Below, one piece after another: positions 5,561 through 6,550 of a stretch of 10,497 nucleotides of DNA; within the stretch, counting starts at the first letter, position 1, and each line of letters begins with the position of its first letter. The DNA comes from a virus, in the IMG/VR virus record IMGVR_UViG_3300035698_031582. One strand, given 5' to 3'. Below the pieces are notes generated by a model. That model saw only the letters and a list, made by a program, of their open reading frames with translations. It was not told the origin of the DNA and ran no database searches. The translations under genes were made by a program, and so were the position numbers.

Positions 5561-6550
5561 ATGGGAAAACAAAAAAACGCACAAATTCAGCCCTTTGTTG
5601 AGGAAGGTAAGATTTTTGAGTGTCTTACTGGTTCTCAAGCTTATGGCTTTGCAACACCGGAATCTGATATAGACATTCGTGGTATTACAATTCCTCCTAA
5701 AGAATATTTAATTGGATTAAAGAGTTTTGATCAACAGGAATATCCTAAGCCTGAAGATAAGGTGATTTATAGCATTGAGAAGTTTTTTAAGTTGGCTTCT
5801 GAATGCAATCCCAACATCATTGAATTGCTTTTTGTGCCTGATCATTGTATTCGTTACATTGATAAATGGGGCAAACTCTTGATGGAGAATAGACATTTGT
5901 TTGTTTCTAAGAATGCTAAGTTTAAGTTTTCTGGGTATGCTCATGCTCAGTTGAAGAAAATTAAAAGACATAAGAAGTGGATTGATATGGAGAAGGATGG
6001 TGAGCCACCTGTAGAGCCAAAACCTACTGATTATATGGTTGATAGATATTATATTTTGAAGAAATCACCTGATGGCAACTATATGCCTACTAAGGTTGAT
6101 AAATTTCTTTATGATAAGAATGCCGATAATGGAATGGTTAGGTGGCAAACATGTGAGGGTGGTGAGCGGTATCAGGTGGATTTAAAGAGTTATAGAAATT
6201 ACAAGCAGTGGTTGAAGGAACGTAATCCTAAAAGGGCGAAGCTTGAACGTAAGTTTGGTTATGATACCAAGAACGCTAGTCATTTGGTTCGTATTTTTAG
6301 AATGGGTGTTGAGGTTCTTACTGATGGTATTGTGAGGGTGGATAGACGTTTGGTTGGGGACGCGGAGGAAATTTTTGCTATTCGTCAGGGTTTAATGACT
6401 TATGATGAACTTATGGAGTTTAATGATGGGATGGATGCTAAGTTAGATGATTTGTATGAGTCGAGTACAATCCAACATAGTGTTGATAAAGAAAAGATTA
6501 ACGATTTGTATATGGAAATAATTTTAGGAAAATTAAATAGCGGATGGTGA
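5561..6550 (+). CDS. Pol-beta-superfamily nucleotidyltransferase of the YcgL/RlaP (Pfam Nuc-transf, PF10127-like) family
   Basis: Motif LTGSQAYGFATPESDIDIRGITIPPKEYL aligns with B. subtilis YcgL [30 protein letters not shown], carrying the GS...[DE]xD signature of minimal nucleotidyltransferases. Downstream helical regions also align (NPNIIELLFVP vs NPGLLEWLQSP; KNASHLVRIFRMGVEVL vs KKYFYTLRPLLACIWI). RBS AGGGAG (5546-5551). Stop TGA 6548-6550. Confidence 0.7.
   Translation: MGKQKNAQIQPFVEEGKIFECLTGSQAYGFATPESDIDIRGITIPPKEYLIGLKSFDQQEYPKPEDKVIYSIEKFFKLASECNPNIIELLFVPDHCIRYIDKWGKLLMENRHLFVSKNAKFKFSGYAHAQLKKIKRHKKWIDMEKDGEPPVEPKPTDYMVDRYYILKKSPDGNYMPTKVDKFLYDKNADNGMVRWQTCEGGERYQVDLKSYRNYKQWLKERNPKRAKLERKFGYDTKNASHLVRIFRMGVEVLTDGIVRVDRRLVGDAEEIFAIRQGLMTYDELMEFNDGMDAKLDDLYESSTIQHSVDKEKINDLYMEIILGKLNSGW

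Follow-up and report, generated by a model that had tools for sequence, protein, structure and literature searches.

A long-form phage RlaP with a variable internal insert and a probable role in RNA 3'-end repair

Introduction

On which substrate does a Pol-beta-type nucleotidyltransferase (NTase) carried by a virus act, and where in the protein does its apparent surplus length lie? Both questions are raised by a gene at positions 5561..6550 (+ strand) of IMG/VR virus record IMGVR_UViG_3300035698_031582, a stretch of 10,497 nucleotides (nt) that is referred to here as the window. An initial annotation, made from the letters of the window, read the gene as an RlaP/YcgL-family NTase of unusual length, with 329 amino acids (aa) against ~260 in the family, a ~60-aa C-terminal extension, and an unknown substrate. 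It proposed an RNA 3'-end or protein nucleotidylating activity involved in repair or counter-defence. The chief value of the analysis described here is that it corrects this annotation: the gene is best labelled a long-form RlaP and putative RNA 3'-end nucleotidyltransferase, a description that replaces the label of an unusual extended enzyme with an unknown substrate.

A divergent long-form member of the RlaP family

The open reading frame (ORF) at 5561..6550 was confirmed on the + strand, where it appears in the ORF list with an ATG start, 329 codons and a TGA stop. A Shine-Dalgarno-like AGGGAG, read from the sequence, lies 4 nt before the ATG (5551..5556, +). The encoded protein matches Pfam family PF10127 with E=1.6e-22 and 80.8 bits, where the gathering cut-off is 23. 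This family is RlaP, described in Pfam as the 'RNA repair pathway DNA polymerase beta family', and the second and last Pfam match of the protein is to the generic NTP_transf_2 (PF01909; E=2.8e-4). Residues 7-327 align to positions 28-336 of the 351-position profile of PHROG 388 ('nucleotidyltransferase'; E=4.3e-64). Database searches returned 292 homologues, and the best 120 of the 292 all contain PF10127, are 288-404 aa long and cover 88-98% of the query. The closest proteins are metagenomic and 52-55% identical. The family assignment of the initial annotation is thus upheld by PF10127, by PHROG 388 and by the database homologues.

No profile of a CD-NTase, AbiEii or antibiotic NTase, any of which would have changed the inferred function, gives a better match than PF10127. 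The protein matches no PADLOC model at E<=0.1, in a 2023 version of PADLOC-DB that is older than Hailong. It has no match to a CD-NTase/SMODS family in Pfam at E<=0.1 or to a CBASS model in PADLOC, no match to the AbiEii NTase profile in Pfam or PADLOC, with no AbiEi-like neighbour among the annotated ORFs, and no match to a Pfam antibiotic-NTase family (ANT/KNTase, AadA, LinB). The only NCBIfam match is a sub-threshold one to MntA (NF047752), at 12.9 bits against a cut-off of 60. Identities as a CD-NTase, AbiEii, ANT or MntA protein were discarded on these profile scores. Sequence searches of the PDB with the single protein, the family profile (E<=1) and a profile of the insert described below found no relative. 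Judged by its sequence, the gene is a long-form phage RlaP and a divergent new member of a known family.

Active site and domain architecture

The Pol-beta signature, read from the translation, is G24-S25-x10-D36-x-D38. The motif noted in the initial annotation is therefore present, with a spacer of 10 residues in place of the 9 given there. In an alignment of 44 sequences, the invariant residues of the N-terminal domain are G24, S25, Y28, S35, D36, D38, G41, F75, L78, N83 and P84; G125, A127, Q130, H137 and P153 are invariant further along the chain, and in the C-terminal domain W217, R221, N222, R225, E229, D235, K237, H241, R244 and G277 are invariant. A third carboxylate, D66, is kept in at least 90% of the 44 aligned relatives. 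From this conservation, the predicted catalytic residues are G24-S25 (5630-5635), D36 and D38 (5666-5674) and D66 (5756-5758), all on the + strand.

An AlphaFold2 model of the protein has two domains, with a mean predicted local distance difference test (pLDDT) of 95.3 and a predicted template modelling score (pTM) of 0.86. Conservation and a modelled strand/helix core with pLDDT 95-98 delimit the Pol-beta NTase domain to residues 17-118 (5609..5914, +). It is followed by a long basic connecting helix, residues 119-142 (5915..5986, +), modelled as a helix over 119-145 and containing the invariant G125, A127, Q130 and H137. This helix is the best-conserved segment of the protein (59% mean identity) and has 8 Lys and Arg against 1 Asp or Glu. 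Next come an internal insert, residues 143-213 (5987..6199, +), and a C-terminal helical domain, residues 214-329 (6200..6547, +), which is recognised by its invariant residues and ends in register with the family. In the model, the all-helical C-terminal domain extends over 201-324, with helices at 201-301 and a terminal helix at 310-324.

A Foldseek comparison of the model with the PDB found no close solved structure. The best matches, to HalB, kanamycin NTase, AadA and LinB, are weak (E>=4.7e-3, template modelling (TM) score 0.3-0.45), and those to antibiotic-NTase folds have E>=8e-3 and TM <=0.45. Among predicted viral structures there are 32 fold matches at E<=1e-3, mainly phage 'nucleotidyltransferases' and giant-virus proteins, and Bacillus phage G gp218 is one of the matches.

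The surplus length is an internal insert

The ~60-aa C-terminal extension of the initial annotation is refuted by a deletion test, by alignment with a natural short RlaP and by a length survey. With the intact protein, the Pfam alignment is limited to residues 17-138, on profile positions 20-144 of 249. When residues 143-213 are removed in silico, the alignment grows to residues 17-247 against profile positions 20-248. The same profile positions, 20-248 of 249, are matched by residues 20-246 of a naturally short, 256-aa RlaP from a B. velezensis plasmid (locus L087; WP_118381873). This short form aligns to the query in two blocks: its residues 15-146 align to query 12-134 in the NTase domain (39% identity, E=4e-27) and its residues 150-248 align to query 219-320 in the C-terminal domain (32% identity, E=2e-13). 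Therefore, 3 residues of the short RlaP stand in place of query residues 135-218, and the two C termini are in register, with 9 residues left over in the query and 8 in the short form. B. subtilis YcgL is also a short-form RlaP. The C-terminal fragment 214-329 by itself, like the insert by itself, gives no meaningful match in Pfam, so the homology of the C-terminal domain is judged from the deletion construct and the alignment with the short form, through which it is collinear with and homologous to that of the canonical short RlaP.

For the length survey, 128 relatives were aligned, comprising the RlaPs of 84 loci, 43 database proteins and T4 NrdC.11. After the invariant R244 they have 76-114 residues, with a median of 84, and the query, with 85, has a typical tail. 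The spacing from W140 to W217 ranges from 46 to 124, with a median of 70 and modes near 68 and 110, and is likewise typical in the query, at 76. A Pfam match confined to the N-terminal part is also found in T4 NrdC.11 (336 aa) and in an RlaP from a C. botulinum plasmid (335 aa). The length that the initial annotation took to be unusual is normal for the phage clade, as seen from the range of the homologues and from the 351 positions of the PHROG 388 profile. From these alignments, 329 aa is the usual size of a widespread long form, whose extra residues relative to the ~250-aa Pfam model are internal. Since this surplus is a variable insert that is normal for the clade, the find is an ordinary one, and the window RlaP has no feature out of the ordinary for its clade.

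The insert begins with a Pro-rich linker (P149, P153) that is conserved across the long forms. The module that follows the linker is modelled as alpha/beta, with helices at 155-158 and 181-188 and strands at 160-168, 174-179 and 194-199. It is the worst-conserved region of the protein, and over the insert as a whole the mean identity to the query is 15%, against 44-59% elsewhere. In the six closest relatives the insert is better kept, with 57% mean column identity and an invariant MPT motif. The insert has no sequence relative in Pfam or the PDB, and short RlaPs lack it. Sequence comparison thus describes the 70-84-aa insert as a rapidly evolving module that is usual in the phage clade, and the phage RlaPs as a coherent long form in which a conserved Pro-rich linker is followed by a hypervariable module of 30-90 aa. 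In the crystal structure of PfRlaP from Pseudomonas, the NTase and helical domains enclose a cleft, and the last helix packs back onto the NTase domain (PMC12776372). The secondary structure of the AlphaFold2 model is compatible with such an arrangement. Because the insert is placed exactly between the two domains that form this substrate cleft in PfRlaP, it may tune the recognition, and hence the choice, of RNA substrates.

Long forms of other phages differ in how far they resemble the query. PHROG 388 proteins from Cronobacter phages CR3 and CR8, Escherichia phage 4MG, Erwinia phage Hena1, Serratia phage ChuuTotoro and others are collinear with it over their full length, with 33-35% identity over 91-94% of the query in tblastn and none above 60%. 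T4 NrdC.11 (NP_049709, 336 aa), also assigned to the RlaP family by others (PMC12776372), is a long-form phage RlaP like the query, to which its NTase domain is 33% identical (E=3e-14 in BLASTP). In NrdC.11, as in the query, the Pfam match is limited to part of the profile, here positions 24-142, the region downstream of the NTase domain cannot be aligned to the query in BLASTP, and the protein falls in a separate subclade.

A probable role in RNA repair

The statement in the initial annotation that the substrate of the family is unknown is outdated. Carruthers, Fatma & Huang (bioRxiv, Dec 2025; PMC12776372) characterised two Pseudomonas RlaPs, PfRlaP and PaRlaP, which favour Mn2+ and add one or two nucleoside monophosphates (NMPs), or their deoxy counterparts (dNMPs), to the 3'-OH of RNA. 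Cleaved-tRNA mimics are favoured substrates, and PfRlaP prefers the anticodon-side 3' end of such a mimic over the acceptor 3' end. RlaP can restore aminoacylation of a tRNA that lacks one anticodon-loop nucleotide by acting before ligation. The enzymes have low specificity among nucleoside triphosphates (NTPs), label intact tRNAs, including full-length ones, and rRNAs in total E. coli RNA, and do not act on DNA or E. coli proteins (PMC12776372). In a survey of jumbo phages, Iyer et al found RlaP to be the commonest repair NTase and to track RNA ligases, with the CCA-adding enzyme and Thg1 ranking next (PMC7824862). The name RlaP is credited in both of these papers to Burroughs & Aravind (2016).

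The window protein shares with PfRlaP and PaRlaP the PF10127 domain, the catalytic Asp triad, the layout of an NTase domain followed by a C-terminal helical domain and, in its relatives, a linkage to RNA-repair genes. It differs from them, as they are described in print, by its 70-84-aa interdomain insert, and while the Pseudomonas genes lie within rtcB-rtcA operons, the query is of the phage type and has no ligase in view. By homology to PfRlaP and PaRlaP, conserved motifs and gene context, we infer that the window RlaP is probably a template-independent RNA 3'-end NTase that restores one or two nucleotides on ribotoxin-damaged RNA, presumably tRNA, within the set of RNA-repair enzymes of a phage. 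In the mechanism that we propose, D36, D38 and D66 would hold two divalent metal ions, probably Mn2+, and one or two NMPs would be moved from NTPs to the 3'-OH of the damaged RNA, most likely tRNA. The added nucleotides would replace those lost to host ribotoxins or anticodon nucleases, after which an RNA ligase could seal the extended RNA or the phage's CCA-adding/HD enzyme could finish it. RlaP would thus be one tool in the RNA-repair kit of a probably large phage. Of the two activities named in the initial annotation, RNA 3'-end nucleotidylation fits the published biochemistry, and protein nucleotidylation is disfavoured because PfRlaP and PaRlaP leave DNA and E. coli proteins unmodified. 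The proposed role in repair or counter-defence is likewise consistent with that biochemistry and with the gene neighbourhoods of relatives.

These neighbourhoods were surveyed in 84 RlaP loci. Neighbouring genes were clustered without prior bias and cluster representatives were compared with Pfam, because single-sequence phmmer searches for RtcB, Rnl and other partners undercounted them. At least one of PNKP, Rnl, RtcB, Thg1 and a CCA enzyme is encoded within 10 kb and on the same strand in 37 of the 84 loci. PNKP occurs in 22, a PF09414 RNA ligase in 15 and a second ligase type in 4, with a CCA enzyme in 10, Thg1 in 4 and RtcB in 3. Some partners are adjacent and co-directional: Rnl across a 7-nt gap (L019), PNKP across an 81-nt gap (L020) and Thg1 abutting (L039). 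Elsewhere, the CCA gene abuts or overlaps RlaP (L028, L049 and L050). In one locus (L070, 14137..15291), the PF09414 RNA ligase encoded 3 kb downstream of RlaP has an N-terminal HNH endonuclease domain. HNH-fused Rnl2 has already been recorded in jumbo phages (PMC7824862).

Close relatives of the window RlaP are found in several such settings. One that is 53% identical (P0005, locus L001) is encoded in synteny with the window, where the gene order is CCA/HD enzyme (880 aa), NADAR-YpsA, ClpP, RlaP and PanD. Another, 54% identical (P0004, loci L002 and L003), has an Rnl-type ligase on one side and RtcB, Thg1, HD and Metallophos proteins on the other, and a third, 52% identical (P0006), has RtcB ~4 kb upstream on a 183-kb contig. 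In the C. botulinum phage-like plasmid pNPD1_1 (L088, 5917..11625), RlaP and a CCA/HD gene share 8 nt, with RtcB encoded 3.5 kb downstream. In four further C. botulinum plasmid records, the tblastn match spans RlaP and an abutting gene annotated as HD-domain or CCA-adding. Between one arrangement and another, the RlaPs share no more than 49% identity. The gene context of relatives agrees with RNA repair.

Several points weigh against this reading. No background control accompanies the neighbourhood counts, and a single syntenic lineage, which also encodes dUTPase, thymidylate kinase, ThyX and Hsp20, accounts for many of the PNKP and Rnl loci. The 10.5-kb window contains no RNA ligase, PNKP or Thg1 detectable with Pfam or PHROG. 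It also contains no phage structural gene, so that its phage origin is deduced from relatives only. The characterised RlaPs, from Pseudomonas, are only distant relatives of the window protein, and the biochemistry comes from one preprint before peer review, in which the authors call the biological role unproven (PMC12776372).

Alternative functions

Could RlaP work without a ligase, at the other end of the tRNA? A CCA-adding/HD enzyme is encoded 3.3 kb upstream of RlaP in the window, and class II CCA-adding enzymes, whose genes lie near RlaP here and among several of its relatives, resemble RlaP in adding a few nucleotides to an RNA 3'-OH without a template. They belong to another Pol-beta family, with a PolyA_pol head, a body/tail and a strict CCA product, and the query RlaP has no match to CCA-adding-enzyme profiles in Pfam. 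The recurrent adjacency of RlaP and CCA genes suggests a variant in which the two enzymes repair the tRNA acceptor end in place of the anticodon loop: RlaP would rebuild bases lost beyond the CCA, such as the discriminator, phosphorylated ends would be cleaned by the HD domain, and the last step would fall to the CCA enzyme. Both the window and its syntenic relative encode a CCA/HD enzyme with no ligase in the sequence seen, although the window is only 10.5 kb long and a ligase may sit elsewhere in the genome. The abutting or overlapping gene pairs, in both orders, recur in three loci of the survey and five C. botulinum plasmids, among RlaPs that are again no more than 49% identical, and the fact that RlaP labels full-length tRNAs when given total E. 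coli RNA (PMC12776372) would also fit an action at acceptor ends. However, in L074 and in C. botulinum the CCA-linked RlaP genes have RtcB close by as well, Rnl and RtcB accompany a sister RlaP that is 60% identical to that of L001, and the preference of PfRlaP for the anticodon-side 3' end (PMC12776372) points the other way. On balance, we regard acceptor-end repair in place of anticodon-loop repair as doubtful. It is equally a long shot, in a broader form, that long-form RlaPs beside CCA/HD genes, accompanied here by NADAR-SLOG, carry out a ligase-independent rescue of tRNA 3' acceptor ends, in which the HD domain, and perhaps NADAR, may strip blocking groups and the insert may set which damaged tRNA ends are recognised. 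If true, such a rescue would counter host defences that hit the acceptor end and not the anticodon loop. The recurrence of RlaP beside CCA/HD genes in divergent phages and phage-like plasmids makes acceptor-end repair a testable hypothesis, and the sole lead of this kind from the analysis.

RNA repair by RlaP was also weighed against three functions of other kinds, each of which is unlikely. RlaP could be offensive, extending the 3' ends of intact host tRNAs or rRNAs in the manner of a MenT-like toxin, so that aminoacylation is blocked or the RNA is marked for decay and the host is shut off. Low NTP specificity and the labelling of intact tRNAs and rRNAs in total RNA (PMC12776372) are compatible with this activity, but the partners conserved beside RlaP are repair enzymes (ligases, PNKP, Thg1 and the CCA enzyme) that would reverse such tailing, and there is neither a toxin-antitoxin-like partner gene nor a match to PADLOC or a toxin family, making an offensive role very improbable. 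Still less probable is the synthesis of free signalling or decoy oligonucleotides that manipulate host defence, as by HalB or a CD-NTase. Hailong HalB (PDB 9dbh) is the closest solved fold to the query, but at 13% identity, a TM score of 0.3-0.45 and E ~5e-3, with no sequence-profile relationship, the resemblance is what would be expected of any minimal NTase with a helical domain. Free oligo-dA is what HalB produces as part of a defence system, whereas an RlaP lengthens RNA at its 3' end: by sequence family the protein is an RlaP, the tested substrate is RNA, the family profile matches no PDB chain at E<=1, and CD-NTase and PADLOC matches are absent. Nucleotidylation of a small molecule or a protein, as by the ANT and LinB antibiotic NTases or the AMPylating antitoxin MntA, is just as remote. 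The faint MntA match that could be cited for it scores far under the 60-bit cut-off, no Pfam antibiotic-NTase family is matched, E. coli proteins are not RlaP substrates (PMC12776372), and the gene context is one of RNA repair.

Phage origin and other genes of the window

The window probably comes from a phage, and likely a large one, because relatives of its RlaP occur in phages, the best E-value falls to a very large phage genome, and its proteins have PHROG and vault-like matches. RlaP relatives were found in 1,305 GenBank phage records and in at least 495 IMG/VR stretches, with the best E-value among the phage records listed belonging to a 485-kb uncultured phage. Several window proteins match PHROG families. 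A megablast search of the whole window against GenBank phages gave no match. Exact searches with the RlaP, NADAR-SLOG and PanD proteins retrieved no source contig, and a 40-nt piece of the DNA had no exact counterpart in IMG/VR or the JGI metagenomes.

All long ORFs of the window are on the + strand. The GC skew is strongly positive throughout (0.28-0.61 per 500 nt), at a GC content of ~34%. No tRNA genes or Rfam families were found in the window, and a scan for promoters and terminators gave no excess over shuffled sequences (26 vs 23.8). For transcription, the observation is a tight co-directional packing of genes, and nothing beyond it is claimed.

The CCA/HD and NADAR-SLOG neighbours named in the initial annotation were both confirmed. 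The former, at 1..2244 (+), encodes the body of a CCA-adding-type tRNA NTase and an HD domain in at least 747 aa, as identified by Pfam (PolyA_pol_RNAbd and HD), TIGR02692 (E=8e-18) and PHROG 2244. Its listed ORF is 67..2244 (725 aa), but reading frame 1 is already open at the first base and encodes an RRDFTIN motif at its beginning, so the gene runs past the left end of the window. Its head domain is encoded beyond that end, and the syntenic homologue in L001 has both PolyA_pol and HD. The enzyme is unusually large, with at least 747 aa here and 880 aa in L001, against ~450 aa in C. botulinum. Within the 725-aa ORF, the RNA-binding segment is at residues 78-114 and the HD domain at 471-558, with ~350 aa between them that match no family and a tail of ~170 aa after the HD domain.

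Between this gene and NADAR-SLOG lie five ORFs of 165, 55, 111, 232 and 166 aa (2327..4524, +). Those of 165, 232 and 166 aa have no Pfam match, and those of 232 and 166 aa have no PHROG match. The 166-aa ORF does not recur in any other RlaP locus, and the 165- and 232-aa ORFs each recur in only one. The shorter of these two proteins, with 165 aa, is Lys/Glu-rich at its N terminus and Cys-rich at its C terminus.

The fusion of NADAR with a YpsA-type SLOG domain (4525..5532, +; PF08719, E=3.6e-26; PF06908, E=2.5e-15) ends 28 nt before RlaP. It appears to be rare, with no GenBank phage record matching at least 80% of its length. NADAR-only homologues are encoded less than 6 kb from RlaP in five loci (L057, L061, L067, L084 and L085). 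In the 216-kb non-mobilizable B. velezensis plasmid (L087), the short RlaP at 5956..6726 is followed ~6 kb downstream (12630 onward) by a 'SLOG family protein', a proximity that echoes the arrangement in the window.

On the other side of RlaP, 7 nt past its stop, begins a full-length gene for the aspartate 1-decarboxylase PanD (6558..6923, +; PF02261, E=7e-41; TIGR00223, 124 bits against a cut-off of 106). PanD is unusual cargo for a phage, and is also encoded 3' of RlaP in L001 (11201..11569). Its Gly24-Ser25 self-processing site (YEGSITI) is presumably intact, taking E. coli PanD as the model.

Further downstream, a vault-like protein that resembles major vault protein (MVP) is split over two overlapping ORFs in different frames, 7520..8731 and 8523..10256 (+), with matches to MVP_shoulder (E=9e-27) and Vault_3 (E=9e-8). 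In the 735-kb uncultured huge phage LR756501, the homologue is a single 809-aa ORF; its residues 7-322 align to the upstream ORF of the window and its residues 320-767 to the downstream one. The change of frame, near 8654-8658, falls at a run of five G and could reflect a programmed frameshift, a pseudogene or an error of sequencing. The vault-like protein is found in only three huge-phage records of GenBank, from uncultured phages of 462-735 kb.

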